DNA of 64,000 bases from Clostridium sp. CAG:245 (GCA_000435175.1 FR880046.1:47271-111270), one strand, 5' to 3'; positions 28,227 to 57,564 are shown, counted from the stretch's first letter. The notes: generated by a model not told the origin, from the sequence alone. Made by a program: numbers and translations.

Positions 28227-28780
28227 TGGGAATTATTAATGTTTATACAGGACCAATGAAATGCGGCAAAAGTCAGAAGATATTTAATGAATTAAAGAGA
28301 CAATTAATTGCAGGAAAGAACATTAAGGTATTTAAACCATTATTAGACAATAGAGCAGGAGATGCAGTAATATCAACAAGAGCAGGCAATTCAATAAATG
28401 CTATAAATATTCAGAGCATAAATGAGCTTGAAAAATATGATGCAGATTCATATTTTATTGATGAATTTCAATTTTTAAAAGGAGATATTCAAACAATAGA
28501 TAAAATGGCTGCAGAAGGAAAAAAATTTTATATAGCTGGATTAAATTTAACATCAGAAAAGAAAACATTTGGTAAAATGGGAGATTTAATGTGTATTGCT
28601 GATAATATTGAGATGATGACTTCTATATGTGAAATTTGTAAGAGCGAAGAAGCTATATTTACATATTATAAAGGACAAAAAGACACAGACATTATGGTTG
28701 GAGACGCAGAATATATACCTGTTTGTAGAGAATGCTATAATAAACTGATGAAACATATGCCATTTGAAATCGCCCAATAG
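28227..28780 (+). CDS. tdk: Thymidine kinase
   Basis: P-loop GPMKCGKS and a C-terminal zinc ribbon (CEICKSE...CRECY). Start chosen at the ATG after the GGAGG RBS rather than the upstream ORF-track start. Confidence 0.85.
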
Positions 28781-28800
28781 GGACGCCCCTTTTTGGGCGA
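28771..28800 (+). repeat. GC-rich palindromic hairpin element, copy 1 (CGCCCAATAGGGACGCCCCTTTTTGGGCGA); supplies the tdk stop codon
   Basis: 7-10-bp stem (t)CGCCCAA/TTGGGCG(a) around a 15-nt loop. The TAG of tdk lies inside the element (...IAQ*). Confidence 0.7.
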
Positions 28801-28971
28801 GTAAAATAAAAAACAATTTTAATTTTACAAAAATTTCGATACGTAGCTCTTGTTCGGATTTCATCTGGATTTTTCAAAAAACAAACTTGAACTTATTTCT
28901 AAAAATTAGATTTTTTTATATAATTGTGTGACCAATTTAAAAATTTACCGTTTATATATATGGAGGATGTA

Positions 28972-29478
28972 ATGGAAGATAAAAATAAGAAAAGAAGTAA
29001 TTATATTAGCTGGGACGAATATTTTATGGCAATAGCCAAATTATCTGCGATGAGAAGTAAGGACCCATCAACTCAAGTTGGTGCATGCATTGTTGGTGCA
29101 GATAATAGAATTTTATCAATTGGATATAATGGAACTCCAAACGGTTTTAATGATGACGAGTTTCCTTGGAATAGAGAAGGCGACAATTTGAATACAAAAT
29201 ATCCATATGTATGCCATGCAGAAATGAATGCAATATTAAATTATAGAGGAAGTAGAAAAGACTTAGAAGGTGCTAAAATTTATGTGGATTTATTTCCATG
29301 TAACGAATGTGCAAAAATGATAATTCAATCTGGAATTAAAGAAGTAATATATTTATCTGATAAATATGCAAATTCCGAAAATAACATAGCATCTAGAAAA
29401 TTGTTAGATACTTGTAAAGTAACCTATAAAAAAATGCATATAGATGATGAAATGAAGAATATTGAAATTAAGCTATAA
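28972..29478 (+). CDS. Deoxycytidylate (dCMP) deaminase, ComEB-like
   Basis: Cytidine/deoxycytidylate deaminase zinc motifs HAEMNAI and PCNECAKMI. Start after the GGAGG RBS. Confidence 0.85.
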
Positions 29479-29605
29479 TAATTAAAAATAGCCTCCGACA
29501 TATTAAAAAACACCATAATAAAACTGGAAAACATTGCTATTAAATGAAAAGTATGATATAATTGCAAAAGCAAAATATAACGTGAAGGAGCTGTATTAAT
29601 AGAAT

Positions 29606-30877
29606 ATGGAAGAAAAGGCACAATTTGGAATTGGATTTGTGTCAGGCAGACCGAATGTTTGCGCTGTTATAAACAACACATATAAGCATTTATTAAATCA
29701 AACTAAAAAGTTTGATAGAGAGGTTGAGTTAACGATATTCATATTGTATGATTTAAGTTACCAAAAAGAATCTAGAGAAGAAGATTTTTATAAAATATTA
29801 CCAGAGGTACATAAAGATATAAAAATTGTTCATATTACTCCCCAATTAATAGAGGAGCAAAAATCAGGATTAGTTAAAGAGAAAATAATAACTATGGACG
29901 AAGCCAATTTATTCTTCGGCTATGGCTATGCAAAAGCAAGGAATACACTGCTATATAATGCGGTAATTAATGGAATTGATTATTTTTTATACTGGGATGA
30001 TGACGAATACCCAGTAGCATGTATTAAGAATAATACGAACGAAAACATTAAATGGAAGGCACAAAATAATATATTAGGGCATTTGGAGAACATAGAAAAT
30101 GCTGATATTACTTTCGGACATAGATGCGGATATAATTCGCCACTTCCATATATGGAATTAAAAAATCCATTTCATGAGCGTAGAATAAAGTCTTTTATAG
30201 AGGCTGTAAAAAATGAATTTATGACGTGGAAAGATGTTAAAGAATATTTGTCAAAAAATGATGGAATTGCCTATGCTGATGAAGAATTAATGAAAAAGAA
30301 AACTGTGAGTGAAATACAAATCCAAGGAACGCATAAACGTATATTGGGATCTCCATTGTGCCTAAACTTGAAACATTTAGAAAAAATTCCGGCATTTTAT
30401 AATCCGGAAGGGGCAAGAGGAGAAGATGCATTCTTTTCTTTGTTATTGAATGAAAACAAAGTGGTAAGTGTACCGGTTTATCATTTTCATGACCCATTTA
30501 TAAAATTTAATAATGTTTTAGAAGGAAAGTATCCAAGGAAAATAGATAAAACAAAATCTAACGATAAAAGCGTTGAACAGAGATTTTATAAGGTGGCTAG
30601 AGGCTGGATTAAATACAGACCTTTATATTTGTATGCAACTAATAGAGAAAATTATGAAAAAGAAATAAAGAAAACAGTAAAAAATTTAAAGAGAGGCATT
30701 CCAGCAATGAATAAAATGTTTAAAGATAAAGACTTTAACATTTTATTGGAAGACCTAGAAAAATATAATTCAAATGTAAAACAAGATTATGAAGATTTTC
30801 AACATGTACAAGTTGTTTGGAAAAAGTTGAAAAAAACAATTACTGAAAATAATAAAAAACTTGTAATCGCCCAATAG
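29606..30877 (+). CDS. Hypothetical protein, possible GT-A-like glycosyltransferase (YWDDDEY motif)
   Basis: 423-aa ORF immediately upstream of a GT8 glycosyltransferase. C-terminal ...LVIAQ* and stop come from hairpin element copy 2. Confidence 0.45.
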   Translation: MEEKAQFGIGFVSGRPNVCAVINNTYKHLLNQTKKFDREVELTIFILYDLSYQKESREEDFYKILPEVHKDIKIVHITPQLIEEQKSGLVKEKIITMDEANLFFGYGYAKARNTLLYNAVINGIDYFLYWDDDEYPVACIKNNTNENIKWKAQNNILGHLENIENADITFGHRCGYNSPLPYMELKNPFHERRIKSFIEAVKNEFMTWKDVKEYLSKNDGIAYADEELMKKKTVSEIQIQGTHKRILGSPLCLNLKHLEKIPAFYNPEGARGEDAFFSLLLNENKVVSVPVYHFHDPFIKFNNVLEGKYPRKIDKTKSNDKSVEQRFYKVARGWIKYRPLYLYATNRENYEKEIKKTVKNLKRGIPAMNKMFKDKDFNILLEDLEKYNSNVKQDYEDFQHVQVVWKKLKKTITENNKKLVIAQ

Positions 30878-30897
30878 GGACGCCCCTTTTTGGGCGA
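30868..30897 (+). repeat. GC-rich palindromic hairpin element, copy 2; supplies the stop codon of the 29606..30877 gene
   Basis: Identical 30-mer CGCCCAATAGGGACGCCCCTTTTTGGGCGA. The TAG at 30875..30877 is inside it. Confidence 0.7.
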
Positions 30898-30911
30898 AAA
30901 GAGGAGAGAAT

Positions 30912-31769
30912 ATGGGAGAGAAGGCTTATTTTACGACTTTATCAACAGAAAATTATTTACCAGGAGTTATTGCACTAAATCAAGCATTAAAAAATGTGCA
31001 TTCTAAATATCCATTATATGCATTACTTAGCAACGAGATTTCTGAAGAGATAGAAGAAAAATTAAATAAAAAAGGTATAAAAACTATAAGAAGAGAAAAA
31101 GTTGACTTGCCTCAAGAAATAATAGATAGAAACAGGTCAAGGGCAAAGAATAGATGGAATTACACTTTTGATAAACTAAATATTTTTGAACTAACAGATT
31201 TCGAAAAAATTGTATTTATAGATAGTGACATTTATGTAAGACAAAACATAGATTGTTTATTTGATAAACCACATATGTCAGCCGTAATAGATAAACATTA
31301 TGGTCCAAATTTAACGTGCAGATGCTTGGAGCTTACATCTGGGGTTATTGTAGTAGAACCTAGAAAAGGACAAATTGAAAAATTTAAAGAAATAATAAAA
31401 ACAATAATAGACAAACGAGATGCAATAGGGGATCAAGATATATTGCAGGAATATGACCATGAGTGGAAAAATAAACCTGAGTTACATCTAAAAAATAAAT
31501 ATAATATATTCTTTCCATATCTAGAGTACTATGTAAACTTTCAAGAATATTCGATGGATGACTTAGCTGTAATTCACTTTATATATCCATGGAAACCTTG
31601 GATGCTTGATAAAGAAAACAGAGTTAACGAATATGTTGAATACATAGATGGATTTACGAAAGAATGCTATGAAGAAGAAAAAGCTCCAGAATACATAGAT
31701 TGCTTATATGGAGATCGTAGACACGCTAAAAAGATTGTAGAAGAATATTGCAAACTAATTGAAGAGTAA
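30912..31769 (+). CDS. Glycosyltransferase family 8 protein (glycogenin/LPS galactosyltransferase-like)
   Basis: N-terminal YFTTLSTENYLPGVIALNQAL and DxD motif IVFIDSDIYV typical of GT8. Confidence 0.8.
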   Translation: MGEKAYFTTLSTENYLPGVIALNQALKNVHSKYPLYALLSNEISEEIEEKLNKKGIKTIRREKVDLPQEIIDRNRSRAKNRWNYTFDKLNIFELTDFEKIVFIDSDIYVRQNIDCLFDKPHMSAVIDKHYGPNLTCRCLELTSGVIVVEPRKGQIEKFKEIIKTIIDKRDAIGDQDILQEYDHEWKNKPELHLKNKYNIFFPYLEYYVNFQEYSMDDLAVIHFIYPWKPWMLDKENRVNEYVEYIDGFTKECYEEEKAPEYIDCLYGDRRHAKKIVEEYCKLIEE

Positions 31770-31917
31770 ATTATTAAAAATACAACAATTAGACACCTAT
31801 TTATACTAAAAAAATAGTGCAAAAGATAAAATGCAACTGAAAGTTTACAAAAAGATAATGAAAATTGGTGGTGCAACTTTATTTATTTGCTCTATAATTT
31901 AGGTGGAGGTGAGAAAA

Positions 31918-33300
31918 ATGAGATTTAGTGAAAAATTACCAAAACTAAGAAAAAACAATAATTTATCGCAGGAACAACTTGCAGAACAATTAGGCGTATC
32001 TAGACAAGCAGTTTCAAAATGGGAGGCTGGCAATTCCTATCCAGATATGGAAAAAATGCTACAAATGTGCCAAATATTAAATTGCCACTTGGAAGATTTA
32101 ATGGATGATGGTTCAATAGGAAATACTTCAATAGAAGGTTCGAAAAACAAGATTGATTTAAATGTATGCATGCAAGACTTTTTAAATTTTATAACAAAAC
32201 TATATAATATGTTTGTTAGCATGAGGTTTAAAGAAAAAATCAAATTTATATTTGAAATGGTATTTATAATTCTAATTTTGTTGCTATCTGGGTTATTAAT
32301 TATGAAACTTTTAGAATACATAATTTATGGAATTCTTCCATTACCTATATTATGGAAAATATTAAGCAAAGTAATTACGCTTATATTGATTGCAGTTGGA
32401 GGAGTAATTTTTATTCATTTACTAAAAATTAGGTATCTAGATTATTATGTAACAATAGAGGATCAAAATATTACGAAGAAGAGTATTGAAGAACCTATTG
32501 AAAAAACAGAAAATAGACACTACGAAGAAAAGTCAAAAGAAAAAATAATTATTAGAGATCCAAAACATTCTGGTCCGGCTTTTCTAAAAGTAATTGAAAA
32601 AATCATAGTAATAATGATAAAACTATTTATGATTTTCATTGCAATTCCAGTGGTAATAGGATTCGTAATTGATGTTGGTTGCACAGTGGTTTCATTGTAC
32701 CATATTATATATGGAAATATATTCGCGGGAATTGCATTTGTTGGAATTGGTATAGCTTTAATTCTTTATAGCTTTATGGAATTAGCATTTAATTTTGTTG
32801 TAGACAAAGAACAACATTTTAAGAAAATATTTATAATTGCAATAATAGGCTTGATAACTTGCGGGGTAGGAGCAGGAATAGCAATAGGGTCATACCTAAA
32901 TTTCGAACATGGTTCAACAGATCAATATAATGAATATAAAACATTATCACAAGAAATTCCAATGTCTGATAATTTATGGATAACAAAAAACTATGAGCAT
33001 GAATATATTATAGACAATTCAATAGGTACAGTAAACATTGAAGTAAAATATTTGAATGGAATAGAGCCTAAATTAGAAATAGAAAACAGAAAAAATTCTA
33101 ATGACGAAAACTATCAGTATTGTCTTGTAACATATGACACAAATAGATATATGTTGTATAAAAATATATTACAGGATATAAAAAACAAAAAACTTATTGA
33201 CTATGAGAATCTAAATTCTATTAAATTAAAGATAACAGTATCACAAGAAAACTATGAAAAATTACAACAAAATTATGAAAAATACTGTAAACAATATTAA
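31918..33300 (+). CDS. XRE-family HTH transcriptional regulator fused to a multi-TM domain
   Basis: N-terminal LSQEQLAEQLGVSRQAVSKWEAG helix-turn-helix, then 6+ hydrophobic segments and a soluble C-terminal domain. Confidence 0.7.
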   Translation: MRFSEKLPKLRKNNNLSQEQLAEQLGVSRQAVSKWEAGNSYPDMEKMLQMCQILNCHLEDLMDDGSIGNTSIEGSKNKIDLNVCMQDFLNFITKLYNMFVSMRFKEKIKFIFEMVFIILILLLSGLLIMKLLEYIIYGILPLPILWKILSKVITLILIAVGGVIFIHLLKIRYLDYYVTIEDQNITKKSIEEPIEKTENRHYEEKSKEKIIIRDPKHSGPAFLKVIEKIIVIMIKLFMIFIAIPVVIGFVIDVGCTVVSLYHIIYGNIFAGIAFVGIGIALILYSFMELAFNFVVDKEQHFKKIFIIAIIGLITCGVGAGIAIGSYLNFEHGSTDQYNEYKTLSQEIPMSDNLWITKNYEHEYIIDNSIGTVNIEVKYLNGIEPKLEIENRKNSNDENYQYCLVTYDTNRYMLYKNILQDIKNKKLIDYENLNSIKLKITVSQENYEKLQQNYEKYCKQY

Positions 33301-33450
33301 AACTAAATAAAAAATAACAGGAGTGTGCTTTTGAAAAGAAGTGCACTTAAATTATAAAAAATAAAAGAACAAAAGTTTGCAAAACTATTGAAAAGACACT
33401 ATAAATGTGCTATAATAACAGTGCAAAAATTTTATTAAAGGATGATTTTA

Positions 33451-36279
33451 ATGAATGATAATATTATTATAAAAGGCGCAAAAGAACACAATTTAAAGAA
33501 TATAGATTTAACAATTCCAAGAAATAAATTGGTAGTTGTTACAGGACTTTCGGGTTCTGGAAAATCTTCACTTGCCTTTGATACTTTGTATGCAGAAGGA
33601 CAAAGAAGATATGTAGAGAGTTTGTCTAGTTATGCAAGGCAATTCTTAGGTATGATGGAGAAACCTGAGGTTGAGTCTATTGAAGGACTTTCACCTGCTA
33701 TTTCTATTGACCAAAAGACTACATCTAAGAACCCACGCTCTACAGTTGGAACGGTTACGGAGATTTATGATTATTTGCGTTTATTATATGCAAGAATTGG
33801 AGTGCCATATTGTCCAAACTGTGGTAAGAAAATTGAAAAGCAGACTATTGACCAGATTGTTGATAATATTCTGGAACTTGAAGAAGGAACAAGACTTCAA
33901 GTTTTAGCTCCTGTTGTACGTGGAAGAAAGGGAGAATTTACAAAACAGTTAGAAGATTATCAAAAAGCAGGTTTTATTAGAGTAAGAATAGATAGTCAAA
34001 TGTATGAGCTTGGAGAAGATGAAATTACTCTTGATAAAAAGAAGAAACATAATGTTGATGTTGTGGTAGACAGGTTAATTATTAAAGAAGGTATTCGTGC
34101 AAGATTAACTGAATCTGTTGAAACAGCAATGAAATACGCAAACAACCTAGTTACAATAGATGTACCGGGACAAGAAGAAAAAATCTATTCTCAAAATTAC
34201 GCATGTACGGATTGTGGTATTAGTTTTGAAGAGTTAACACCAAGAATGTTCTCTTTTAACAATCCATTTGGAGCCTGCCCAGAGTGTACTGGTATTGGCT
34301 ATTTAATGAGAATTGATGAGGATTTAATAATTCCAGATAAAGATAAGACACTATATGATGGTGTAAAAGCTTTCGGAGCTAGCACCATGAAAAAAGGCGA
34401 TACTATGGCTAAGATGTACTTTGAGAGTATTGCAAAACATTATGGAGTTAAAATTAAAGATGTTCCAATTAAAAAATTACCAAAGGATTTCTTAAATAAA
34501 ATTCTATATGGTACAGGAGATGAAGTAATTGATTTTGAATATACATCTGCTGCCGGAACAAGAAAATTTTCTACTCCATTTGAGGGCGTAATTCCAACCC
34601 TTGAAAGACGTCATAATGAAACAAAATCTAATGGTATGAGAAGTTTTTACGAGATGTACATGAGTGAGTCTCCCTGTCTTGCTTGCCATGGGGCTCGTTT
34701 AAGAAAAGAAAGTTTATCTGTAAAAATTGGAAATTTAAACATAAAAGAACTTACAGATATGTCAATAGATAAAATAAAAGAATATATAAATAACATAGAG
34801 CTTACACCAACCCAGGCAATGATTGCAGAACAGATCTTACAAGAGTTAAATAAACGTTTACAATTTTTAATAGATGTTGGACTTGATTATTTAACACTCT
34901 CGAGACCAGCTGGTTCTTTATCTGGTGGTGAAGCACAACGTATTAGGCTTGCAACCCAAATCGGTGCTGGTCTTACAGGGGTTCTATATATTCTTGATGA
35001 ACCAAGCATTGGACTTCATCAAAGAGATAATGACAAGCTAATTGCTACATTGAAGAAATTAAGAGATTTAGGAAATTCTGTTATAGTTGTAGAACATGAT
35101 GAAGATACGATGTATGCTGCTGACCAGATTATAGATATTGGACCAGGAGCCGGAGTACATGGTGGAAATGTAATGGCACAAGGAACTGCAGAAGAGATAA
35201 AAAATACACCAGGTTCTATAACAGGTGATTATTTGAGTGGAAGAAAACAAATAGTAGTTCCAAAGAAAAGAAGAAAGTCTAATGGAAAATCTATAGAAGT
35301 AGTTGGGGCAACAGAACACAACCTAAAAAATATTACAGCAAAATTTCCATTAGGACAATTTATATGTGTAACAGGTGTTTCTGGTTCAGGAAAATCAACA
35401 CTCGTAAACGAAATTTTATATAAGACGATTGCAAGAGACTTAAATGGTTCTAATGAAAAGCCAGGAAAATGCAAGCAAGTAAAAGGCCTTCATAATATAG
35501 ACAAGATAGTAAACATAGACCAATCACCAATAGGAAGAACTCCTCGTTCAAATCCAGCAACATATACTGGTGTGTTTGATATGATAAGAGATTTATTTGC
35601 AGGCACAAACGAAGCAAAAATGAGAGGATATGACAAGGGAAGATTTAGCTTCAATGTTCCAGGTGGAAGATGCGAAGCTTGCTCTGGAGATGGAGTCTTA
35701 AAAATAGAAATGCATTTCTTATCAGATATATATGTTCCTTGTGAAGTTTGCAAAGGAAAACGTTATAACAAAGAGACATTGGAAGTAAAATATAAAGGAA
35801 AATCAATATCAGATGTTCTAGACATGACTGTTGAAGAAGCATTAGAATTCTTCGATAAAATACCAAGAATAAAATCAAAAATTCAAACATTGTATGATGT
35901 TGGTTTAGGTTATATCAAATTAGGACAACCTTCAACAACACTATCTGGTGGCGAGGCTCAACGTGTAAAATTGGCAACAGAACTTTCTAAGAAAGCAACA
36001 GGAAAAACCTTATACATCTTAGATGAACCAACCACAGGACTACATATTGCAGATGTTCATAGATTAGTAGATATTTTACAAAGACTTGTAGATACAGGAA
36101 ATACAATAATTGTAATAGAACATAATCTAGACTTAATAAAAACTTGCGACCACATAATAGATTTAGGACCGGAAGGCGGAGATAAAGGTGGACAAGTAAT
36201 AGCAGTAGGAACACCAGAACATATTGTAAAAAATGAAGATAGTTATACAGGAAAATTCTTAAAAAAATATCTTAATTAA
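33451..36279 (+). CDS. uvrA: Excinuclease ABC subunit UvrA
   Basis: Two ABC ATPase modules ([15 protein letters not shown]; [13 protein letters not shown]), zinc-finger cysteines, LSGGEAQR signatures, ~940 aa. Confidence 0.95.
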
Positions 36280-36287
36280 TACAAAGC

Positions 36288-36321
36288 AAATCCCCATTGG
36301 TTTTAAAACCGCAGGGGATTT
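36288..36321. terminator. Bidirectional terminator between convergent uvrA and LOG genes
   Basis: AAATCCCC...GGGGATTT outer stem with a nested GGTTTTAAAACC palindrome. Confidence 0.6.
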
Positions 36322-36382
36322 ACTTTCTTTGCGGATACTTACCGCAGAGTTTTGAGCAAATTAAAAATGTAACAACTTATAC

Positions 36383-36937
36383 TTATGAAAGAGATTTCTC
36401 CAATGTGGGAACAATCTCATCTGTGGAGTTTACCACGGTATACAGTTTGGCGTCTTTTTCATCTGCAAAGCCTTCATCATAAACTCGTGCAAGAACGTGT
36501 AAAACGTCATTAAAGTAACCTTGCTCGTTGATGATAATGATGGGGCTGTTGTGTTCACCACAACGTTTTGCCTCTATGCTTGAAAAAAGCTCGTCAATTG
36601 TTCCGATGCCACCAGGCAGAAAAATATGCATGGAAGTATTCTTGAAAATCCAATCCTTGCGCTCACTAACAGTGTTAAAGTCAAACAAATTGCTGTAGAA
36701 AAGCTCTTCGGCATCGTTAATGTATGCCTGAGGAATAGCCACGATTATGTTGGCTTTATTAAGTAACATACATTTGTACATAAGCCCCATAAGGCCTCTT
36801 GCACAACCGCCAAATACGAGAGTGTGCTTATGCGCAGTTATGAATTTTGTAACTTCAAGTGTTGCCGTGCAATAGCGGCTCCACTTAACGTTATCAGTTA
36901 CATCACGAGACGAACATCCAACAAAAATATTCATCAT
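36383..36937 (-). CDS. LOG family protein (TIGR00730, cytokinin riboside 5'-monophosphate phosphoribohydrolase-like)
   Basis: VFGGCARGLMGLMYK and PGGIGTIDELF motifs. Confidence 0.85.
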   Translation of the reverse strand: MMNIFVGCSSRDVTDNVKWSRYCTATLEVTKFITAHKHTLVFGGCARGLMGLMYKCMLLNKANIIVAIPQAYINDAEELFYSNLFDFNTVSERKDWIFKNTSMHIFLPGGIGTIDELFSSIEAKRCGEHNSPIIIINEQGYFNDVLHVLARVYDEGFADEKDAKLYTVVNSTDEIVPTLEKSLS

Positions 36938-37099
36938 ATGCTCCTTTCAATTATACATGTGTATAAAACGAACTAACTAATTTTACCACAGAATCTTCGA
37001 AAGGTCAACATAATAAAAAATAGCAAAATTACTCTATTGACAGATTAGAACAAAATACATATAATTACTGTATAAATAAATTAGGAACAAGGTGAAAAA

Positions 37100-37804
37100 A
37101 TGGAAAATAATATAATAGAGAATAATATAACAATAGGAATAGAAGGACTAGTTGGAGCTGGCAAAACATCAATTTGTAGGGAATTATTAGACAAAATACC
37201 TAATAGTATAATATTACATGGTGGCAATTTATATAGAGGAATTGTATTTGCATTAATGTCTTCAGGAGCTGACATGAATAAGATTATGCATGGAACAGAT
37301 AAACCAATTGATATAAAGCAAATGATGGATATATTAAAAGTAGAATTGAAAATAGAAAATAGAGAAAGTGTTGTTTATGTTGATGGAAAAGAAATAAATG
37401 AAGAAAGTTTACAATCAGACACAACATCAATGGCAGTTTCTAAAATTGCAAAAGATGCTGATAACACAAAATTCTACATATTTGGAAGAAAATTAATAGA
37501 TGCATATAAAAAGCAATATAATCTAATAATATCAGGTAGAGACTTAATGAAAATTTATCCTGAGCTAGATTATCATTTCTTCGTAACAGCAGATATAGAT
37601 ACAAGAGTAGATAGAAAAATGCATCAATATGAAAATGAAACAATAACAAGAGAAGAATTGAAAAAACATATTGAAGAAAGAGATATGTTGCAGGAGCAAG
37701 CCGGCTTCTACAAGAGATACAGCAAAACAATTGATGTTGATGTAACAGAATGCAAGAATGCAGAAGAATCGGCTATGAAAATATTAGAAAAGATTGCTCA
37801 ATAA
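37100..37804 (+). CDS. Cytidylate kinase-like P-loop kinase
   Basis: IGIEGLVGAGKTS P-loop, NLYRG and IISGRDLMKIYPELDYHFFVTADIDTRVDRK resemble the Cmk lid and NMP-binding regions. Could alternatively be a deoxynucleoside kinase. Confidence 0.55.
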   Translation: MENNIIENNITIGIEGLVGAGKTSICRELLDKIPNSIILHGGNLYRGIVFALMSSGADMNKIMHGTDKPIDIKQMMDILKVELKIENRESVVYVDGKEINEESLQSDTTSMAVSKIAKDADNTKFYIFGRKLIDAYKKQYNLIISGRDLMKIYPELDYHFFVTADIDTRVDRKMHQYENETITREELKKHIEERDMLQEQAGFYKRYSKTIDVDVTECKNAEESAMKILEKIAQ

Positions 37805-37810
37805 AATATT

Positions 37811-37840
37811 TCGCCCCCAAAGGGGCGTCCCTAATGGGCA
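37811..37840 (-). repeat. GC-rich palindromic hairpin element, copy 3 (reverse orientation, slightly diverged)
   Basis: TCGCCCCCAAAGGGGCGTCCCTAATGGGCA is the reverse complement of the consensus with 3 differences. Sits between the kinase-like gene and murD. Confidence 0.6.
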
Positions 37841-37863
37841 AAAAACTAAAAAGGAGTTTAAGT

Positions 37864-39267
37864 ATGGATTTTGTAAATGAAAAGTTAGAAGAATTTAATA
37901 AATTCTTAGATGGTAAAAAGGTTGCTATAATCGGCATGGGTGTTAGCAATGTGCCTTTGCTTGATTATTTTTATGATAAAAATGCGAAAGTTACAGTATT
38001 TGACAAGAGAAATTTATCAGATGAAATTATGGAAAAAATAAATAAATATAGATATGAAGTTGAAATAGGAGAAGATAATCTATCTAGATTACATGGATTT
38101 GATGTTATTTTCAGATCTCCTAGTGCATTACCAACAATACCAGAGTTTGTAGAAGAAGTTGAAAGAGGTGCATTATTAACGTCTGAAATTGAAATGGTAT
38201 TAAAGCTTGCACCATGTAAGGTAATAGGCGTAACTGGCACAGAGGGAAAAACTACTACTACATCAATTATATATGAAATATTAAAGCAAACAGGACGTAA
38301 TTGCTTTTTAGGAGGAAACATTGGAAAGCCTATATTTACTAAAGTAAAAGATATGAGACCAGACGATATAATTGTGCTTGAATTAAGTAGTTTTCAATTA
38401 ATGGGAATGGAAGTTAGCCCAGATATTGCAGTTGTAACAAATATGTTTCCAGACCACTTGAATGTACATAAATCATATGAGGAATATCAAGAAGCAAAGA
38501 AAAATATTCTCTTACATCAAGATAAAAACGGAATAGCAATCCTAAATAAGGATAATGATATTACTAGAAACTTTGCAAAAGATGTAGTCGGAAAAGCTGT
38601 ATTCTTTAGTAGTACAAAGCAATTAAAAGATGGATATGTGTATGACAGAGCTGACCAGATGATAAAACATTGTGTAGATGGAAAATGCATAGAGTTATTG
38701 AAAAAAGATGAAATAAAATTAAGAGGAATTCATAATTACGAAAATATTTGTGCTGCACTTGCAGCAACAGAAACAGTCGCTACTAAAGAACAACAATTAA
38801 ATGCAATAAAGAATTTTAATGGGGTTGAACACCGATTAGAGTTTGTAAGAGAACTAAATGGAGTAAGATATTACAACGATTCTATTGGAACTAGCCCAGC
38901 AAGTACAATTGCGGGATTGAATGCTTTTGATGAAAATATTGTATTGCTAGCAGGTGGATCAGACAAAGGATTAGATTACAAAGAAATTGGAGAAAAAATA
39001 GCACAAAAAGTAGGAACATTAATATTGACTGGCCCAACATCTGAAAAAATTGAAAATGCAACAGTCATAGCATTAGGAGAAATGCAAGACAAGAAAATAG
39101 ACATTATACATTGTACAAATCTTGAAGAAGCCGTTAAAATGGCAAAACAAAAAGCAGTAACAGGAGATGTAGTGTTATTATCGCCGGCAAGTGCAAGCTT
39201 TGATGCCTTCAAAAATTTTGAAGAACGTGGAAAAAAATTCAAACAGTATGTAAATGAACTAAATTAA
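37864..39267 (+). CDS. murD: UDP-N-acetylmuramoylalanine--D-glutamate ligase MurD
   Basis: N-terminal Rossmann VAIIGMGVSNVPL, Mur ligase P-loop GVTGTEGKTTTTS, ~468 aa. Start at the ATG after the AAAGGAG RBS. Confidence 0.9.
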   Translation: MDFVNEKLEEFNKFLDGKKVAIIGMGVSNVPLLDYFYDKNAKVTVFDKRNLSDEIMEKINKYRYEVEIGEDNLSRLHGFDVIFRSPSALPTIPEFVEEVERGALLTSEIEMVLKLAPCKVIGVTGTEGKTTTTSIIYEILKQTGRNCFLGGNIGKPIFTKVKDMRPDDIIVLELSSFQLMGMEVSPDIAVVTNMFPDHLNVHKSYEEYQEAKKNILLHQDKNGIAILNKDNDITRNFAKDVVGKAVFFSSTKQLKDGYVYDRADQMIKHCVDGKCIELLKKDEIKLRGIHNYENICAALAATETVATKEQQLNAIKNFNGVEHRLEFVRELNGVRYYNDSIGTSPASTIAGLNAFDENIVLLAGGSDKGLDYKEIGEKIAQKVGTLILTGPTSEKIENATVIALGEMQDKKIDIIHCTNLEEAVKMAKQKAVTGDVVLLSPASASFDAFKNFEERGKKFKQYVNELN

Positions 39268-42113: not shown

Positions 42114-42123
42114 AGATGAATAA

Positions 42124-46303: not shown

Positions 46304-46310
46304 AATGCTA

Positions 46311-47329: not shown

Positions 47330-47446
47330 AGATCTAAAGGCAATTATAAATGAAAAAATTTGCCTTTAAATTTTCATATAAAAACGCAAACAAATGTTTA
47401 CAATGCAAATAATATGTGTTATACTATTTGCACGAGGTGATTTTCT

Positions 47447-48949: not shown

Positions 48950-48984
48950 AATGAAAATATTTTATAGAGCGGAGGTATGGAACT

Positions 48985-49386: not shown

Positions 49387-49452
49387 AGCTTTAAAATTGG
49401 ATTTTAATATGGTATAAACAATATATTAGAAATATGTTATAAGAGGTACAGT

Positions 49453-50022: not shown

Positions 50023-50162
50023 AATATTTACTGATTGTTTAATAAATTTTTGACAATTATATAAATTTGTAAAATTTTTTGACATTATGAAAAAACTGGT
50101 TATTGAAAATTATAAATTTTTATTTTTATAATAAATTTATTAAAACTAAGGAGGTAAAATTT

Positions 50163-51938: not shown

Positions 51939-51943
51939 AGATT

Positions 51944-51989
51944 AAAATGCTAATATGTCAGATAAAAAATTTTGACATATTAGCATTTT
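51944..51989 (+). terminator. Long-stem terminator after ohyA
   Basis: AAAATGCTAATATGTCA...TGACATATTAGCATTTT, a 17-bp stem. Confidence 0.65.
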
Positions 51990-52133
51990 GCTGTGATTTT
52001 AAATTGACATTTTATGTAAAATATAGTAAAATGAATAATTGTAAAAATGCTGTATAGATATATCATAGTCAAATTGACGATGGTAATAAAAGTGTACGGC
52101 AGATGCTATACTAACAAAAGAGAGGTTAGGAGT

Positions 52134-52550
52134 ATGAAATTGAAGTTGTTTTTGTCAGATTATCAATATCGGCAGATGTTAATGAAAGACTTGACGATGA
52201 AAATTACAGGGTTACCAATTGTGAAACAGGTTTATCATCATTATCGGGTGAACCAGTTTAAGAAGGAAAACAAAAACTTGGACGGTTGGGAGTGCTATGT
52301 TAAACTTCTTCAGATTGAAGAGGATAACAGACGTTTTTTGTTTAACGTAGCTCTTCTGAGGCTGAAAGAATGCCTGCAGGATGAAAAGACCACACATGAA
52401 AAACTCGAGGATCAGAAAAAATTGGTCCTGTCTTACTCGCTTATCCAAGAAGAAAGGTTTAATAGCCTCAAAACATGGATCGAGACGGTAGAAATTGGAG
52501 AGAAAGATCTCTCTATGTTAGACAATGCCATGAATGGCTTGCTAAAGTAA
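52134..52550 (+). CDS. Hypothetical protein (locally ~40% GC, likely horizontally acquired)
   Basis: 139-aa ORF after an AGGAG RBS. Followed by a hairpin plus T-run terminator at ~52575..52626. GC is clearly above background. Confidence 0.5.
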   Translation: MKLKLFLSDYQYRQMLMKDLTMKITGLPIVKQVYHHYRVNQFKKENKNLDGWECYVKLLQIEEDNRRFLFNVALLRLKECLQDEKTTHEKLEDQKKLVLSYSLIQEERFNSLKTWIETVEIGEKDLSMLDNAMNGLLK

Positions 52551-52738
52551 AATAGCCATTCGAAGATAATCCTCTGCAACAGACGAAGAAAAAATTATGT
52601 CTGGTGCAGGGGATTTTTTATAAAAGGAAACAATAGGTGATAAGAAGTTATAAAATTAGAAAAATCTATTTACTTTATATGCTTGGATATGTTAAAGTAT
52701 AAGTAGAGTAAAAAATAAAAGAAAGGAATTTTAAAATT

Positions 52739-53329
52739 ATGAAAAAACAAACAATTATCGCAATAGTTATTGCAGTAATCGTAGTTCTTGCAATTACAAT
52801 AGGAGTAGTTGTAGAAAATAGTAAAAAAACAAAAGGAGAAAGTAGTACAATAGAGACAGCTTCTCAAATGAAGGCAATGTTTAAATCTATCTATAATAAA
52901 TTAGGAGATGAATTGCCAGATTTAGAAACAGCTAAAATTGATGTAAGTGATGCCTTAGCTGTAAAAGATTATACAGGTTTGCAATCAAACGAAAATGTAG
53001 AAACACTTGTTGTATCTGAACCATCAATGTCTTCACAAGCATATTCAGCAGTTGCAGTAAAAGTAAAATCGGGTGCTAATGTAGAAAAGATGAAACAAGA
53101 AATGCTAGACAATATCGACATGGCAAAATGGATTTGTGTTTCAGCTAGTAACTTATATATAACAAACAGCGGAAATACAATATTTATGGTAATGTCAGAC
53201 GAAGACTGGGCAAAACCAGTATATGAAGCATTTAAAGAATATGTAAATAATAATATAGGAAAAGAATTAGAAAAGGTATCTGATGAGGAAGATATAGAAC
53301 TACCACCAGAAATGCCAGCAGTAATGTAA
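52739..53329 (+). CDS. Hypothetical membrane-anchored/secreted protein
   Basis: N-terminal signal/TM (MKKQTIIAIVIAVIVVLAITIGVVV) plus a soluble domain. Confidence 0.5.
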   Translation: MKKQTIIAIVIAVIVVLAITIGVVVENSKKTKGESSTIETASQMKAMFKSIYNKLGDELPDLETAKIDVSDALAVKDYTGLQSNENVETLVVSEPSMSSQAYSAVAVKVKSGANVEKMKQEMLDNIDMAKWICVSASNLYITNSGNTIFMVMSDEDWAKPVYEAFKEYVNNNIGKELEKVSDEEDIELPPEMPAVM

Positions 53330-53335
53330 AAATTT

Positions 53336-53365
53336 CGCCCAATAGGGACGCCCCTTTTTGGGCGG
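53336..53365 (+). repeat. GC-rich palindromic hairpin element, copy 4
   Basis: CGCCCAATAGGGACGCCCCTTTTTGGGCGG, followed by a T7 run. Confidence 0.7.
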
Positions 53366-53396
53366 AATTTTTTTAAAAAAATAATTAACAAGTTTT

Positions 53397-53426
53397 CGCC
53401 CCCAAAAGGAGCGTCCCTATTGGGCG
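53397..53426 (-). repeat. GC-rich palindromic hairpin element, copy 5 (reverse orientation), forming an inverted pair with copy 4 around a 31-bp AT-rich spacer
   Basis: CGCCCCCAAAAGGAGCGTCCCTATTGGGCG is the reverse complement of the consensus. Directly followed by the AGGAGG RBS of the MBOAT gene. Confidence 0.65.
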
Positions 53427-53438
53427 AAAGGAGGAAAC

Positions 53439-54830
53439 ATGCTTTTTACAAGTATTAGCTTTTTATATTATTTTTTACCAATTGTATTGATTGCGTATTT
53501 TATTGTGCCAAAGAAGGCGAAAAATTTCGTGTTATTTATTGCTTCTATGGCATTTTATTTTTATGGTGAACCAAAATATATTTTCTTGATGTTAGCAGAA
53601 ATTTTTATTGCTTATATAGGAGCCATTTTAATAGCTAAATACAAAAAGAAAAGCATTTTGACAGTCACTCTTGCAATTCATATAGGATTGTTAGTATTTT
53701 TTAAATACACAGATTTTTTAATTGCAAATATTAATAATATTTTTAACGCAAAACTTAACTTATTACAGCTAGCATTGCCAATAGGAATATCATTTTATAC
53801 TTTTCAAATTATCAGTTATGAGATTGACGTGTTTAGAGGAAATGTTAAGGTTCAAAGAAATTTCTTAAATTTAGCAACATATGTAGCTTTATTTCCACAG
53901 CTAATTGCAGGGCCAATTGTAAGATATGAAACGATTGAGGATGAGCTTTCTAACAGAAAACATAGCTTTGAAAATTTTGCCTATGGAGCTAGAAGATTTG
54001 TTATAGGACTTGCAAAAAAAGTACTTATCGCAAATATGCTAGGTGAATTTTGTAACAAATTTTCAGCAACTGATGAAAAGAGTGTAGTGCTATATTGGCT
54101 ATTTGCAATCTCGTACATGCTACAAATATACTTTGATTTTTCGGCTTATTCGGATATGGCAATAGGACTGGGAAGAATATTTGGTTTCCACTTCTTAGAA
54201 AACTTCAACTACCCATACATATCAAAGAGCATAACAGAATTCTGGAGAAGATGGCATATTTCGCTAGGTTCGTGGTTTAGAGATTATGTTTATATTCCTC
54301 TAGGAGGAAGTAGAAAAGGAAAATTAATACTTGTGAGAAATCTTATTATAGTTTGGCTTCTTACTGGTATTTGGCATGGAGCAAGTTGGAACTTTGTAAT
54401 ATGGGGATTAATGTTTGGAATATTATTAATAATAGAAAAATTATGGCTTGGCAAATACATAGAAAAACTTCCAAATATTTTCAAGAGATTATATGTAATT
54501 TTTATTGTAATGATAAGTTTTATAATATTTAATGCGGGCACAATGAAGGAAGCATTTACTAATATTTCAGGATTATTTGGTGCAAATTCTACTTGTATAA
54601 TAAACGATTACACAATATATTATCTAAGAAGTTACTTAATTACAATAATAATAGCGATAATCGGAGCAACACCAATTCTAAAAAATACAATCGGAGCATT
54701 GAAAACAAAACCAGTAATGAATAAGATTATTAATATATTAGAACCAATAACTATAGTAATAATTTTGCTAATTGTAACAGCGTACTTAGTTGATAATTCG
54801 TATAATCCATTTCTTTATTTTAGATTTTAA
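53439..54830 (+). CDS. MBOAT family membrane-bound O-acyltransferase (AlgI/DltB-like)
   Basis: Multi-TM protein with the conserved MBOAT histidine region (FWRRWHISLGSWFRDYVYIPLGGSR). Confidence 0.85.
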   Translation: MLFTSISFLYYFLPIVLIAYFIVPKKAKNFVLFIASMAFYFYGEPKYIFLMLAEIFIAYIGAILIAKYKKKSILTVTLAIHIGLLVFFKYTDFLIANINNIFNAKLNLLQLALPIGISFYTFQIISYEIDVFRGNVKVQRNFLNLATYVALFPQLIAGPIVRYETIEDELSNRKHSFENFAYGARRFVIGLAKKVLIANMLGEFCNKFSATDEKSVVLYWLFAISYMLQIYFDFSAYSDMAIGLGRIFGFHFLENFNYPYISKSITEFWRRWHISLGSWFRDYVYIPLGGSRKGKLILVRNLIIVWLLTGIWHGASWNFVIWGLMFGILLIIEKLWLGKYIEKLPNIFKRLYVIFIVMISFIIFNAGTMKEAFTNISGLFGANSTCIINDYTIYYLRSYLITIIIAIIGATPILKNTIGALKTKPVMNKIINILEPITIVIILLIVTAYLVDNSYNPFLYFRF

Positions 54831-54847
54831 GAAAGGAAACAATAAAA

Positions 54848-55936
54848 ATGAGTGATAATGTAAAAAACGCAGTTATTACGATAATATTTGTGAGCGTCTT
54901 AGTTATAACTATGATTGTAAATATTGCTAAAAAAGACGGTACTATATCGATTTCGGAAAGAAGAAAGTTAGAACAGTTTCCAAGTTTTTCTATATATAAG
55001 TTATTCAATGGGAAATTTTTCGAAAAATTTGATAAATATACAACAGACCAGTTTACCTACAGAGACAATTTGAGAAAATTAAAGGTAGAAACCGAATTAA
55101 ATATTTTCAAAAAGAAAGATTATAATAATTTATATGAATACAATGGATATATCATAAATCAAGAATATCCGCTAAATGAGAAATCTATTGAAAATCTTTC
55201 AAACAAGGTAAAACAAATAGCAAACCAGTATTTGACAGAGAATAACAATGTGTATTTCACTATAGTTCCAGATAAAAATTATTTTGTGGATAAGGACAAT
55301 TTAAAGTTAGATTATAACAAAATGGAAGATATGTTAAAAGCAGATTTAACGTTTGCTGAATACATAAAAATAAATGATTTGCTAGAATTATCAGACTATT
55401 ATAAGACAGATACACACTGGAAACAAGAAAATATATTAAAAATCGCAGAAAAAATTGCAAATCAGATGAATGCAAATATATCAAAAGATTATGAAACTAT
55501 AAGAATTACTGATTTTAAAGGCGTATATAGTGGTCAACTTCCAATTAGCAGTGAAAACGACGAAATAAAAGTACTAACCAATGACACATTAAAAAGATGC
55601 AAGGTATATAATTATGAAACAAAAGAGTATTCTGGTATTTACAATTTAAATAAAATAAATAGTTTAGATAAATATGATGTATATCTATCAGGAGCAACGC
55701 CAATGCTAACAATAGAGAATCCAGATTATAATGGTACTAAAGAACTAATAGTATTTAGGGACTCTTATGGTAGCAGTTTAATTCCATTATTGGTTACAGG
55801 ATATAGCAAAGTAACAGTGGTCGATACAAGATATATATCACCAAAGTTGCTAAATCAATATATAGAATTTAAAGACCAAGATGTGTTATTTATGTACAGT
55901 ACATTAATAATAAATAATAGCACAACACTAAAATAA
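54848..55936 (+). CDS. AlgX/AlgJ-like SGNH (DHHW-family) partner of the MBOAT acyltransferase
   Basis: N-terminal TM, then a domain with YKTDTHW and FRDSYGSS motifs. Conserved MBOAT-DHHW gene pair. Confidence 0.7.
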   Translation: MSDNVKNAVITIIFVSVLVITMIVNIAKKDGTISISERRKLEQFPSFSIYKLFNGKFFEKFDKYTTDQFTYRDNLRKLKVETELNIFKKKDYNNLYEYNGYIINQEYPLNEKSIENLSNKVKQIANQYLTENNNVYFTIVPDKNYFVDKDNLKLDYNKMEDMLKADLTFAEYIKINDLLELSDYYKTDTHWKQENILKIAEKIANQMNANISKDYETIRITDFKGVYSGQLPISSENDEIKVLTNDTLKRCKVYNYETKEYSGIYNLNKINSLDKYDVYLSGATPMLTIENPDYNGTKELIVFRDSYGSSLIPLLVTGYSKVTVVDTRYISPKLLNQYIEFKDQDVLFMYSTLIINNSTTLK

Positions 55937-55965
55937 GCATAGTCTGATATTAAAAAGGAGATATT

Positions 55966-56217
55966 ATGATAGAAATAGTATTTAAATTGGATGAGAACAA
56001 GGCGATTGCATATGACTCCGAGAACAAGGTTGGCGAATGTGATTTTGAGAAAATAGATGATATTTGGAATATAACACATACAGAAGTTGATAGTGATTAT
56101 CAAGGACAAGGTATAGCTAGAAAGTTAGTAGAAAATGTTATAGAAAATTCTCAAAAATATAATAAAAAGATAACAGCAACATGTTCATATGCAAGAAAAA
56201 TAATTGAGAAAGAATAA
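55966..56217 (+). CDS. Small GNAT-family N-acetyltransferase
   Basis: 83 aa with the acetyl-CoA binding motif YQGQGIARKLVENVIE. Confidence 0.6.
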   Translation: MIEIVFKLDENKAIAYDSENKVGECDFEKIDDIWNITHTEVDSDYQGQGIARKLVENVIENSQKYNKKITATCSYARKIIEKE

Positions 56218-56269
56218 TTTTTAATAATTAGAAAATACTTGCATATAATAAAAATGTATATTATAATAT

Positions 56270-56400
56270 ATAAAGAATATGGTGTTGGTAATAAGGCAAT
56301 ACCAAAGGAGAAAAAATTCTCAAAAAAAGTTGGTGAATCCAGCCATAAAATTGGAACTTAAAAAAGGAAGGTTAGAGTGTAAAGCTCTAATCTTTTTTTT
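56270..56400 (+). ncRNA. Candidate type III antitoxin RNA: promoter (TTGCAT-17-TATAAT, 56237..56266), two degenerate ~44-nt pseudo-repeats, and an intrinsic terminator (TTAGAG...CTCTAA + T9) upstream of the toxN-like gene
   Basis: Architecture promoter - short non-coding transcript - terminator - ToxN-family gene. Pseudo-repeats GTTGGTAATAAGGCAATACCAAAGG... and GTTGGTGAATCCAGCCATAAAATTGG... (~60% identity). A second near-identical promoter copy (TTGCAA-18-TATAAT, 56421..56450) follows the terminator. Confidence 0.35.
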
Positions 56401-56477
56401 ACAAATTTTAGAAAAATACTTGCAAACATATGTACGTATGTGATATAATGCAGAAAATGTATAAGGAGCTGGTTGGT

Positions 56478-57002
56478 ATGATTAAAAATTTACAAATTAT
56501 AAGAGTGAATACAAATTATTGCGATTATTTAAGAAAATTTGATTCAAGAGTAGCCTACAATATGAATGAAAAAGAGATTAGACCTTTTGTAGGAATATTA
56601 TTCAAGATAGAAGATTGCGAATATTTTGCACCACTATCTAGTCCAAAGTCGAAACACAAGAAAATGAAAAATACCATTGATTTTCTAAAGATAAAAAACG
56701 GTGAACTTGGAGCTGTGAATTTTAATAACATGATTCCTGTAAAAAGTGATTATTACTCTATTATTGATTTAAATCAATCAACTTTAACTCTAAATGAAGC
56801 AAAATACCAGAAACTATTAAAAGAACAATTAGCTTGGTTAAACGCAAATTATATTCAAGTAAAAGATAAATCATATAAATTATATACTTTATATAACAAA
56901 GGAAAACTGCCAGAAACCATGAGAGAAAGATGTTGTAATTTTAAGCTACTAGAAGAAAAATGTTTAAAATATACTATTATAGATAGGAGTTTACATGGAT
57001 AA
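56478..57002 (+). CDS. toxN: Type III toxin-antitoxin system toxin, ToxN/AbiQ family endoribonuclease
   Basis: Matches ToxN throughout: YCDYLRKFDSRV (ToxN YIEYLKEFDDKV), FVGILFKIEDCEYFAPLSSPKSKH (ToxN FIGIVLEIQGHKYLAPLTSPKKWH), NNMIPV, and C-terminal CCNFKLLEEK (ToxN CDFAVLEEK). Start after the AAGGAG RBS. Confidence 0.75.
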   Translation: MIKNLQIIRVNTNYCDYLRKFDSRVAYNMNEKEIRPFVGILFKIEDCEYFAPLSSPKSKHKKMKNTIDFLKIKNGELGAVNFNNMIPVKSDYYSIIDLNQSTLTLNEAKYQKLLKEQLAWLNANYIQVKDKSYKLYTLYNKGKLPETMRERCCNFKLLEEKCLKYTIIDRSLHG

Positions 57003-57543
57003 TAAAAAAAGATGCAAGTGGTGCAATATGAAGAATTCACTATATATAAAATATCATGATGAGGAATGGTGCAAACCGAACTTTGATGAGAAATATTTAT
57101 ATGAGATGCTTATATTAGAGTCTTTTCAAGCTGGACTTTCTTGGGAGTGTGTACTAAATAAAAGACAAGCCTTTGAGATGGCTTATGATAACTTTAACAT
57201 AGAAAAAGTATGCCAATATGATGATGAAAAAGTCATAGAACTGCAACAAAATAAAAAGATAATTAGAAATAAATTAAAGATAAAAGCAAGCATAAACAAT
57301 TCTAAAATATTTAAGAATATACAAAAAGAATTTGGCTCGTTCAATAACTATTTAAAGACTTTCACAGATGGCAAAACATACTATGAAATAGATAAGACAA
57401 CATCTCCAATTTCTGATGCTATCTCAAAAAACCTACAAAAAAGAGGAATGAAATTTGTAGGTTCAACAATAATATATTCATATTTACAGGCAATAGGAGT
57501 GATTATATCTCATGATAAAGATTGTTTTCTTTTCGCCCAATAG
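56995..57543 (+). CDS. tag: DNA-3-methyladenine glycosylase I
   Basis: YHDEEWCKP, LILESFQAGLSW and IIRNKLKIKASINNSK motifs. Stop codon donated by hairpin element copy 6. Confidence 0.9.
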   Translation: MDNKKRCKWCNMKNSLYIKYHDEEWCKPNFDEKYLYEMLILESFQAGLSWECVLNKRQAFEMAYDNFNIEKVCQYDDEKVIELQQNKKIIRNKLKIKASINNSKIFKNIQKEFGSFNNYLKTFTDGKTYYEIDKTTSPISDAISKNLQKRGMKFVGSTIIYSYLQAIGVIISHDKDCFLFAQ

Positions 57544-57564
57544 GGACGCCCCTTTTTGGTCGAT
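57535..57564 (+). repeat. GC-rich palindromic hairpin element, copy 6; supplies the tag stop codon
   Basis: CGCCCAATAGGGACGCCCCTTTTTGGTCGA (one mismatch in the 3' arm). The TAG at 57541..57543 is inside it (...LFAQ*). Confidence 0.65.

Follow-up and report, generated by a model that had tools for sequence, protein, structure and literature searches.

Six GC-rich hairpins at gene boundaries of an uncultured gut Clostridium: a probable REP-type family and its RAYT-superfamily partner transposase in related genomes

A stretch of 64,000 nt from Clostridium sp. CAG:245 (GCA_000435175.1 FR880046.1:47271-111270), hereafter the window, contains six nearly identical GC-rich hairpins in DNA of ~30% GC content, in which nearly all genes lie on the + strand and the GC skew is positive throughout. 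An earlier reading of this DNA (the sequence-only reading) had described the hairpins as one dispersed repeat family that it could not assign to a named family, and the question raised by the locus is what kind of element this is and what partner it has. The six hairpins very probably belong to a REP-type (repetitive extragenic palindromic) family that is partnered with a single-copy HUH/Y1 transposase of the RAYT (REP-associated tyrosine transposase) superfamily, in the branch termed TIRYT, Group 1 or subclass 2.1. REP/RAYT systems are well studied in Proteobacteria; the host here is an uncultured species of human-gut Clostridia that is very prevalent and has a ~1.55-Mb genome, and the repeat is a new Firmicute example of the known REP/RAYT kind, not a set of terminators. 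The element-flanked RAYT-type transposase, found in relatives and invisible to the sequence-only reading, turns an unnamed repeat into a REP/RAYT system.

The core AATAGGGACGCCCCTTT, searched with at most one mismatch, matches the window six times (0.02 matches expected from shuffled sequences), and a search with GGGACGCCCC returned the identical six sites. A profile hidden Markov model built from 96 distinct copies recovered precisely these six (E 1e-10 to 6e-15, strand unambiguous) and found no degraded hairpin relics in the window. The hairpins are thus real, and the conserved units, each 31 nt with sharp edges, TCGCCCA(A/T)TAGGGACGCCCCTTTTTGGGCGA, lie within 1-3 nt of the coordinates given before. 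The copies and the doublet formed by two of them are:

28770-28800, + strand: REP-type copy 1, exact consensus; the thymidine kinase open reading frame (ORF) 28145-28780 stops at its internal TAG (28778-28780)
30867-30897, + strand: REP-type copy 2, exact consensus; its TAG (30875-30877) terminates ORF 29606-30877
37811-37841, - strand: REP-type copy 3, an ATT/GGGGGCG variant with 4 differences
53335-53365, + strand: REP-type copy 4, 1 difference, 5 nt past the stop of ORF 52739-53329; left half of the doublet
53396-53427, - strand: REP-type copy 5, 32 nt, 3 differences; right half of the doublet
53335-53427, no strand assigned: convergent doublet, '+' then '-', with a 30-nt AT-rich spacer, REPIN/BIME-like
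57533-57563, + strand: REP-type copy 6, 1 difference (GGTCG); the 3-methyladenine glycosylase ORF 56995-57543 stops at its TAG (57541-57543)

All six are intergenic or overlap a stop codon only, in agreement with the earlier statement that they always stand at gene boundaries, and three genes of the window end on the TAG of the element, with the C-terminal residues (I/F)AQ. The right end of copy 2 is 14 nt from the ATG of a GT8 gene (30912), with a Shine-Dalgarno (SD) sequence between them; copy 3 lies 6 nt past the cmk stop (37804) and 22 nt ahead of a murD-like ATG (37864); and the TCGCCCAAT end of copy 5 is 11 nt from the ATG of an MBOAT gene (53439) and touches the SD sequence GGAGG. Both '-' copies are variants with the GGGGGCG arm. 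The copies are clumped, six within 29 kb, with none at positions 1-28769 and 57564-64000 of the window or in the 7.7 kb upstream of it.

In the folded unit, an outer stem of 8-10 bp is followed by an internal loop (1x2) and then by an inner stem, AGGG/CCCT, which is capped by an ACGC tetraloop; the stability is predicted to be -14.1 kcal/mol for DNA and -20.8 kcal/mol for RNA. Of the 10-bp stem and 15-nt loop described before, the stem-loop fold stands, but the 'loop' itself holds the inner stem and the tetraloop; similarly, the unit length of ~30-35 nt narrows to 31 nt, the outer TT/AA being only 63-78% conserved. A scan of the whole window against Rfam gave no match at the gathering score, i.e. 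no named RNA family, and a permissive scan gave sub-threshold matches to generic miRNA-like hairpins on the doublet only. Literature searches by sequence (GGGACGCCCC, GGGGACGGTTC) returned nothing relevant.

Outside the window, the pattern GCCCAWTAGGGACGCYCCTTT, scanned against one genome per species, matched at least 90 stretches from at least 19 species-level assemblies. Carriers of the repeat, among the matches listed, are metagenome-assembled genomes (MAGs) of uncultured human-gut 'Clostridia', including Clostridium sp. CAG:780, UMGS1435 (to which the window is 99.9% identical), UMGS1476 and HGM13641/13643. The fetched related loci (numbered with L below; 618 kb) contain 133 copies, or 139 when the window is added to the 90 loci, and over these 139 copies each of positions 1-31 is 90-100% conserved, even positions 1-3 and 24-31, on which the search pattern placed no constraint. 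Position 8 is A in 72% and T in 26% of copies; the flanks are TT (74/63%) and AA (78/68%), and beyond those the sequence is at background. The density is ~1 copy per 11-14 kb, with six copies in the 64 kb of the window and 43 in the 618 kb of related loci after removal of ascertainment copies (the total less one guaranteed copy per fetched locus). The excess that the sequence-only reading had expected outside the window is therefore there, although its 'hundreds' per genome was somewhat high, as the density extrapolates to ~100-150 copies per ~1.55-Mb genome. Its principal claim, a dispersed repeat family of REP/BIME/RPE type rather than independent terminators, is borne out by the conserved loop, the A-rich sequence after the stem and the occurrence in at least 19 species-level genomes. 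A phage-borne origin was rejected, with no match to the element among 2.9 million viral contigs.

The candidate partner was found by a search for HUH...Y motifs in the ORFs of the fetched loci, which picked out L030:3896-4621 and L049:4115-4837. The transposase in relatives is a protein of 240-250 aa of the HUH/Y1 type. The L030 and L049 proteins match Pfam Y1_Tnp (PF01797; E 4e-14), have the HUH motif HVH and the tyrosine motif YIHNNP, and score 74-76 bits with the NCBIfam model REP_Tyr_transpos (cut-off 80) versus 25 bits with the IS200 model (cut-off 55). All 40 homologues match REP_Tyr_transpos, the first member at 74-76 bits as the locus-encoded proteins, and H60, H62, Y120, H122, N124 and P125 are invariant among them (motif Y120-x-H-x-N-P). 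The best PDB match by sequence is 4ER8, the E. coli RAYT in complex with a REP hairpin, and an AlphaFold (AF2) model made on the 40 homologues (predicted local distance difference test score 88) also had 4ER8 as its top Foldseek match (E 3e-6), followed by the TnpA proteins of IS608 and ISDra2. The C-terminal part of the protein is a four-helix region, with helices at 192-240 in the model, and many homologues match Sigma70_r4, HTH_23 and HTH_28 there.

For the placement of the enzyme within the superfamily, reference sequences of TIRYTs and RAYTs were rebuilt from Additional file 5 of Di Nocera 2013 (PMC3733652). Since blastp gave 80-107 bits to the published TIRYTs versus 34-45 bits to the canonical RAYTs, the enzyme belongs, as judged by sequence similarity, to the TIRYT branch, which bears a helix-turn-helix (HTH) and corresponds to Group 1 (Bertels 2017) and subclass 2.1 (Quentin 2018).

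In L030, L049, L091-095, L096, L097-102 and L217, the RAYT gene occupies one slot, between the RNase J gene (rnj) and gltX, and each of these genes is enclosed by a '+ ... -' inverted pair of hairpins, an arrangement known as a REPtron. The order rnj-RAYT-gltX is unchanged across lineages whose RAYTs are 45-100% identical (P0008 of L091-095, 55%; P0005 of L096, 54%; P0016 of L097-102, 45%; P0004 of L217, 57%), and in L049 and L030 the REPtron starts 2 nt past the rnj stop and ends 14 nt ahead of the gltX ATG. Overall, a RAYT gene is present in just two of the 90 REP-bearing loci listed. On the two sides of the RAYT gene of L217, whose protein cluster P0004 has 114 members, stand the window consensus in its exact form, TTTCGCCCAATAGGGACGCCCCTTTTTGGGCGAAA, and the inverse of it; the 35-nt consensus quoted in the earlier reading is literally this flanking sequence. 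An initial inference that the window species is without a RAYT, made from low RAYT cluster sizes, is weakened by the size of P0004 and its exact window consensus. A 10-kb walk upstream of the window did not reach rnj.

The flanking hairpins change with the enzyme. They begin TCGCCCAAGAGGGACGCCC... beside P0008 and TCGCCCATCAGGGACGGGGTA... beside P0005, and beside P0016 they read TCAACCAAAGGGGACGGGCC...TTGGTTGA, with compensatory changes in the stem. A metagenome scan added 80 further homologues of 26-51% identity, and a perfect stem of at least 6 bp around GGGAC was found upstream of the gene in 36 of 78 loci, downstream in 42 and on both sides in 28. The stems are unrelated between lineages (TCGCCCA, TTCAACCA, AAGGAAAAG, CCTGTTTTT, GTGCCAA, CGGCAGGCAA and others), while the loop motif (G)GGGAC(G/A)(G/C) is retained. 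As the stem arms had been picked by maximal pairing, a positional control was used in place of a formal covariation count: such stems enclose 34% of the GGGAC sites near RAYT genes versus 7% elsewhere. The change of stem with the RAYT lineage, together with the kept loop motif, ties the repeat and the enzyme together. Across the ~80 homologues, these sequences suggest a general recognition architecture, a variable stem that encloses a GGGGAC loop motif, and the 'TIR' (terminal inverted repeat) of such systems is typically a hairpin with the motif in its loop.

Compared with the REP/BIME/REPIN and RAYT (TnpA_REP) systems of E. coli and Pseudomonas (Nunvar 2010; Bertels & Rainey 2011, PMC3116915; Ton-Hoang 2012), the window family has in common a short GC-rich extragenic palindrome in high copy number, inverted doublets, a single-copy HUH/Y1 enzyme between its own repeats, a repeat whose sequence is particular to each RAYT lineage, vertical inheritance at one constant locus, and the best structural match, 4ER8. 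Unlike in the canonical REPs, its invariant motif, GGGAC(G), is apical in the hairpin; unlike REPINs, its doublets have variable spacers of native DNA (11-300 nt) and no conserved REPIN spacer; and unlike the E. coli RAYT, to which it is 20% identical (34 bits), the enzyme has a C-terminal HTH extension of ~100 aa. The host, moreover, is a Firmicute.

The TIRYT or 'TIRtron' systems (Di Nocera 2013, PMC3733652) are the closest by protein match, and the C-terminal HTH is shared with subclass 2.1 (Quentin 2018, PMC6006769). The TIR motif of these systems is GGGGWSAS (Di Nocera 2013, PMC3733652); the flanking inverted repeats of the relatives carry the akin GGGGAC[AG][CG], mostly as GGGGACGG and in some cases as GGGGACAC, an exact fit, and the window family (AGGGACGC) fits at six of eight positions. 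Group 1 RAYTs have been reported in Clostridia, with a low or moderate repeat abundance of ~12 copies of the flanking 16-mer (Bertels 2017, PMC5581495), and no REP-like hairpins were reported beside subclass 2.1 genes (Quentin 2018, PMC6006769). Unlike in the published TIRYT systems, each 'TIR' here is itself a hairpin with the motif in the loop, and the repeat is expanded to ~1 copy per 11-14 kb with a strict orientation at gene boundaries. The largest RAYT group, previously described as being without REP-like hairpins or high-copy repeats, is thus represented here by a lineage with a cognate hairpin in roughly 100-150 copies, as extrapolated.

Two other families share single traits with this one. 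The HUH/Y1 fold and the recognition of DNA hairpins in single-stranded DNA are those of IS200/IS605 elements (IS608, ISDra2); unlike these, the gene here scores 25 bits with the IS200 model (cut-off 55), sits in one conserved chromosomal slot and not as a multi-copy insertion sequence (IS), and is flanked by inverted copies of one sequence, not by distinct left- and right-end structures on one strand. As in Rickettsia palindromic elements (RPEs) and intragenic REPs, the repeat can enter coding sequence, but unlike RPEs (100-150 bp, in-frame inside genes) it donates only the last three codons and the stop.

For the origin of the copies, the following route is proposed. The 31-nt unit would fold into a hairpin on transiently single-stranded DNA, and the enzyme would recognise the stem together with the invariant apical GGGAC(G) motif, and nick and rejoin the strand in the manner of the E. 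coli RAYT, TnpA(REP), at its own REPs; copies might thereby spread to AT-rich gene boundaries or be seeded there anew. We infer both the catalysis on the hairpin and the mode of copying from the homology of the enzyme to E. coli TnpA(REP). Only insertions straight after a stop codon ('+') or straight before an SD sequence ('-') would persist, and the surviving repeats would end up bracketing intergenic spacers, at times donating the stop codon. Such selective persistence of suitably placed insertions is the presumed reason for the placement rule described in the following.

When copies were classed by the adjoining long ORFs, 90 were found to lie between co-directional genes. In the 54 copies that share the orientation of the genes ('+'), the TCGCCCAAT end is a median of 6 nt (0-21 nt) after the upstream stop, which in eight cases is the element's own TAG (these include three of the four '+' copies of the window); in the 36 copies of opposite orientation ('-'), it is again the TCGCCCAAT end that lies close to a gene, at a median distance of 14 nt from the start codon downstream, and it abuts the SD sequence. 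The other end of the element faces a long spacer (median 99.5 nt for '+' and 69 nt for '-'). In 73 of the 90 copies, as opposed to 17, the distance on the left is the shorter one (p = 2e-9), and as the left flank is sense coding sequence in one class and antisense in the other, this argues for selection and not for a target sequence. Close inverted pairs number 20, and in each of them a '+' copy is followed by a '-' copy across a spacer of 11-300 nt; none is '-/+' or '+/+', and the sole other close pair is one '-/-' tandem duplicate. The doublet spacers look like native intergenic DNA, and the RAYT gene itself occupies the spacer of a convergent pair; most copies, however, are singlets. Thirteen copies appeared to be intragenic, most of which are of the '-' class with over-extended ORF starts.

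The placement rule, with '+' copies a few nucleotides past stops and '-' copies against the SD sequence, is the main ground for considering a host function. It also speaks for another explanation, namely that the hairpins are primarily host-selected cis RNA elements, protective or insulating stem-loops at 3' and 5' ends that mark cistron boundaries, for which the transposase was a historical vehicle or is irrelevant today. Intact copies at one orthologous site in 10 species despite diverged flanks, the lack of decayed copies in the window, the fixation of copies among strains, the stability of the RNA hairpin (-20.8 kcal/mol) and the position of the RAYT gene next to RNase J are all consistent with such a function. 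However, the two orientations differ in RNA only apically, and an RNA function would not obviously dictate orientation; Rfam gave no match at the gathering score and the sub-threshold ones are to generic long hairpins; many equivalent gene boundaries carry no copy, including those of the first 28 kb of the window; and the co-variation of the stem follows the transposase lineage, not the adjoining genes. Primarily cis-acting RNA elements are a possible explanation, if on the unlikely side, and one that is not mutually exclusive with a REP/RAYT family.

A functional role could also be combined with the enzyme, the family having been co-opted as an orientation-locked gene-boundary module in which '+' copies cap the 3' ends of cistrons and can provide the stop codon, '-' copies stand against SD sequences, the two kinds bracket the control regions between genes, and the sequence is actively maintained across many species. 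We consider this unlikely as it stands. If true, it would account for the retention of a 'domesticated' Group-1 RAYT in one constant slot next to RNase J, and it would give a RAYT/REP system a concrete host-level function, possibly in the protection or processing of mRNA ends; the module would be maintained either by selection or by RAYT-dependent re-seeding and homogenisation. With its strict orientation rule at stops and ribosome-binding sites, and with intact copies maintained across species, the family lends itself to the study of a host role of RAYTs and their repeats.

Several observations weigh against a REP/RAYT family as the explanation of the six hairpins. The window contains no RAYT gene, and the REPtron is known from related genomes only. 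A very prevalent close lineage (RNase J P0182), 90-95% identical to L049, is without a RAYT at the canonical position; its rnj-gltX spacer is 23 nt and holds neither RAYT nor repeat. Most other lineages with a RAYT homologue show only the two flanking copies per ~6.7 kb, so possession of the enzyme alone does not explain the expansion, which the window clade represents relative to these lineages. The score with the NCBIfam model for REP-associated tyrosine transposases is slightly below the curated 80-bit cut-off, and the repeat is without the 5' GT[AG]G foot of canonical REPs (Group 2/3; GTAG super-family), its foot being T/TCGCCC with no GTAG or GTGG at either end. The gene-proximal orientation rule is not predicted by known RAYT biochemistry, which speaks for selection on a function. 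A search for insertion polymorphism between strains found none: across 8-10 metagenomic strains, the copies at 37811, 53335, 53396 and 57533 are fixed and do not differ in sequence, and so give no sign of current mobility. Finally, estimates of the conservation of orthologous copies are inflated, the loci having been fetched by an exact 21-mer, and are of qualitative use only.

Gains and losses are seen at the level of species. L044 lacks copies that are present in L064 and in L009/L023 (empty orthologous sites), the window lacks copies found in L031 and L087, and L053 has an extra spacer and inverted copy at the site orthologous to copy 6. The empty rnj-gltX slot of the P0182 lineage is a further such difference. 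At one site, after a gene ending ...ACAAATAA, the 21-mer is intact in 10 species with flanks ~75-80% identical. As neutral decay would leave it intact ~0.2% of the time (0.75^21), the sequence of the element is maintained by selection, conversion or re-insertion, and the lack of relics in the window fits with this. Other sites are retained: copy 3 is kept in L065 (flanks 95% identical) and L021 (89%) and is identical in two other strains, and the doublet 53335-53427 is kept in L017 and L053 and identical across eight strains. The comparison of orthologous loci in relatives thus gave the presence/absence differences between species that the sequence-only reading had looked to. Of its wording 'recently active or selected', recent activity within the species finds no support, the copies checked being identical in 8-10 independent strains, and maintenance across species is upheld.

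Ordinary Rho-independent terminators that resemble each other through convergent constraints are a very improbable alternative to the REP/RAYT interpretation. The copies are GC-rich stems downstream of genes in an AT-rich genome, 21 of the 54 '+' copies have a T-run within 12 nt, and one site (37827-37812, minus strand) was flagged by a terminator scan. But all 31 nt, including the loop, are the same in 139 copies from at least 19 species; the three positions that follow the stem (+1 to +3) are rich in A (78/68/48%) and not in U, with T enriched only from +4 in both gene-context classes; about half of the copies are immediately upstream of an SD sequence between co-directional genes; and genuine terminators exist beside copies, as in L009/L044, the L009/L023 copy sitting just past one. 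Terminator identity was ruled out by flank composition, loop identity and the positions upstream of SD sequences. Miniature inverted-repeat transposable elements (MITEs), ends of unrelated DDE-type IS or orphan CRISPR-like repeats with a coincidental Y1 neighbour are hardly tenable, for although the near-perfect palindrome can be read as two 15-nt inverted arms and partial tandem duplications of the left arm exist, 31 nt is far below MITE size, there are no arrays and no direct target-site duplication (the TT...AA flanks are complementary, not direct repeats), and a like hairpin architecture with lineage-specific stems flanks the Y1 gene in dozens of divergent lineages, which excludes coincidence.

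For the annotation of MAGs, the family has three effects: the element can supply the stop codon of a gene, '-' copies lead to over-extended ORF starts, and assemblies break around the RAYT gene. The '-' copies (AAT variant) contain no stop in any frame, and ORF calls run back through the element, e.g. in the murD-like gene with its real start at 37864; this over-extension is seen at 37750-39267 of the window and in L021, L042, L065 and L082, and is a likely source of mis-annotated starts in MAGs. The only copy in the middle of a long ORF is L063:6003-6033 (minus-strand ORF 5375-6817, which encodes 481 aa). It stands in the stop-free orientation at a distance of 784 nt from the start of the ORF, and either a true in-frame insertion within a gene or a read-through fusion of two ORFs could account for it.

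Some further variants of the repeat were observed. In L049:4996-5075, a 47-nt block (repeat plus 16 nt) is tandemly duplicated beside the RAYT gene, and in L004, L031, L037 and L067 the left 10-13 nt of the element are tandemly duplicated next to full copies, ending near TAGG; these partial duplications of the left arm may be the footprint of a nick site or of a repair step. The same repeat is carried by CAVFFR (L038, L049, L060, L068), labelled Bacteroidaceae, and CAKUZI (L040), labelled Candidatus Melainabacteria. These labels are probably wrong; CAVFFR is 90-95% identical to contigs of the P0182 RNase J lineage (L195, L206).

Of the other genes of the window, the minus-strand ORF 36383-36937 was suspected to be a transposase and is a LOG-family (lysine-decarboxylase-like) gene; most of it, within a 543-bp stretch (36445-36988), is missing from the 95%-identical L065 and present in strains of the window species (L191/L192). 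A ToxN-family toxin ORF (56430-57002; Pfam ToxN_toxin for the identical gene elsewhere) is preceded at 56332-56367 by a 36-nt unit, GGTGAATCCAGCCATAAAATTGGAACTTAAAAAAGG, which is present once in the window and in two or three tandem copies in other strains of the same species. The toxin gene and the 36-nt units look like a type III ToxIN system with a variable number of ToxI repeats. A 36/72-nt length polymorphism near the hairpin copies compared among strains belongs to this ToxI-like tandem repeat and not to the hairpin repeat.

The SpoIVA gene is split into ORFs 2099-2359 (86 aa) and 2331-3578 (415 aa), which overlap by 29 nt; this is not a sequencing error of the window, because the same split is present in four independent metagenome contigs (L200-L203). 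A Transposase_31 (PF04754) gene (11246-12421) is followed by a JetA-containing (Wadjet-like) gene set (12482-17874), which is present in the window and in L200-L202 and replaced by other genes in strain L203; this set is a strain-variable defence island.

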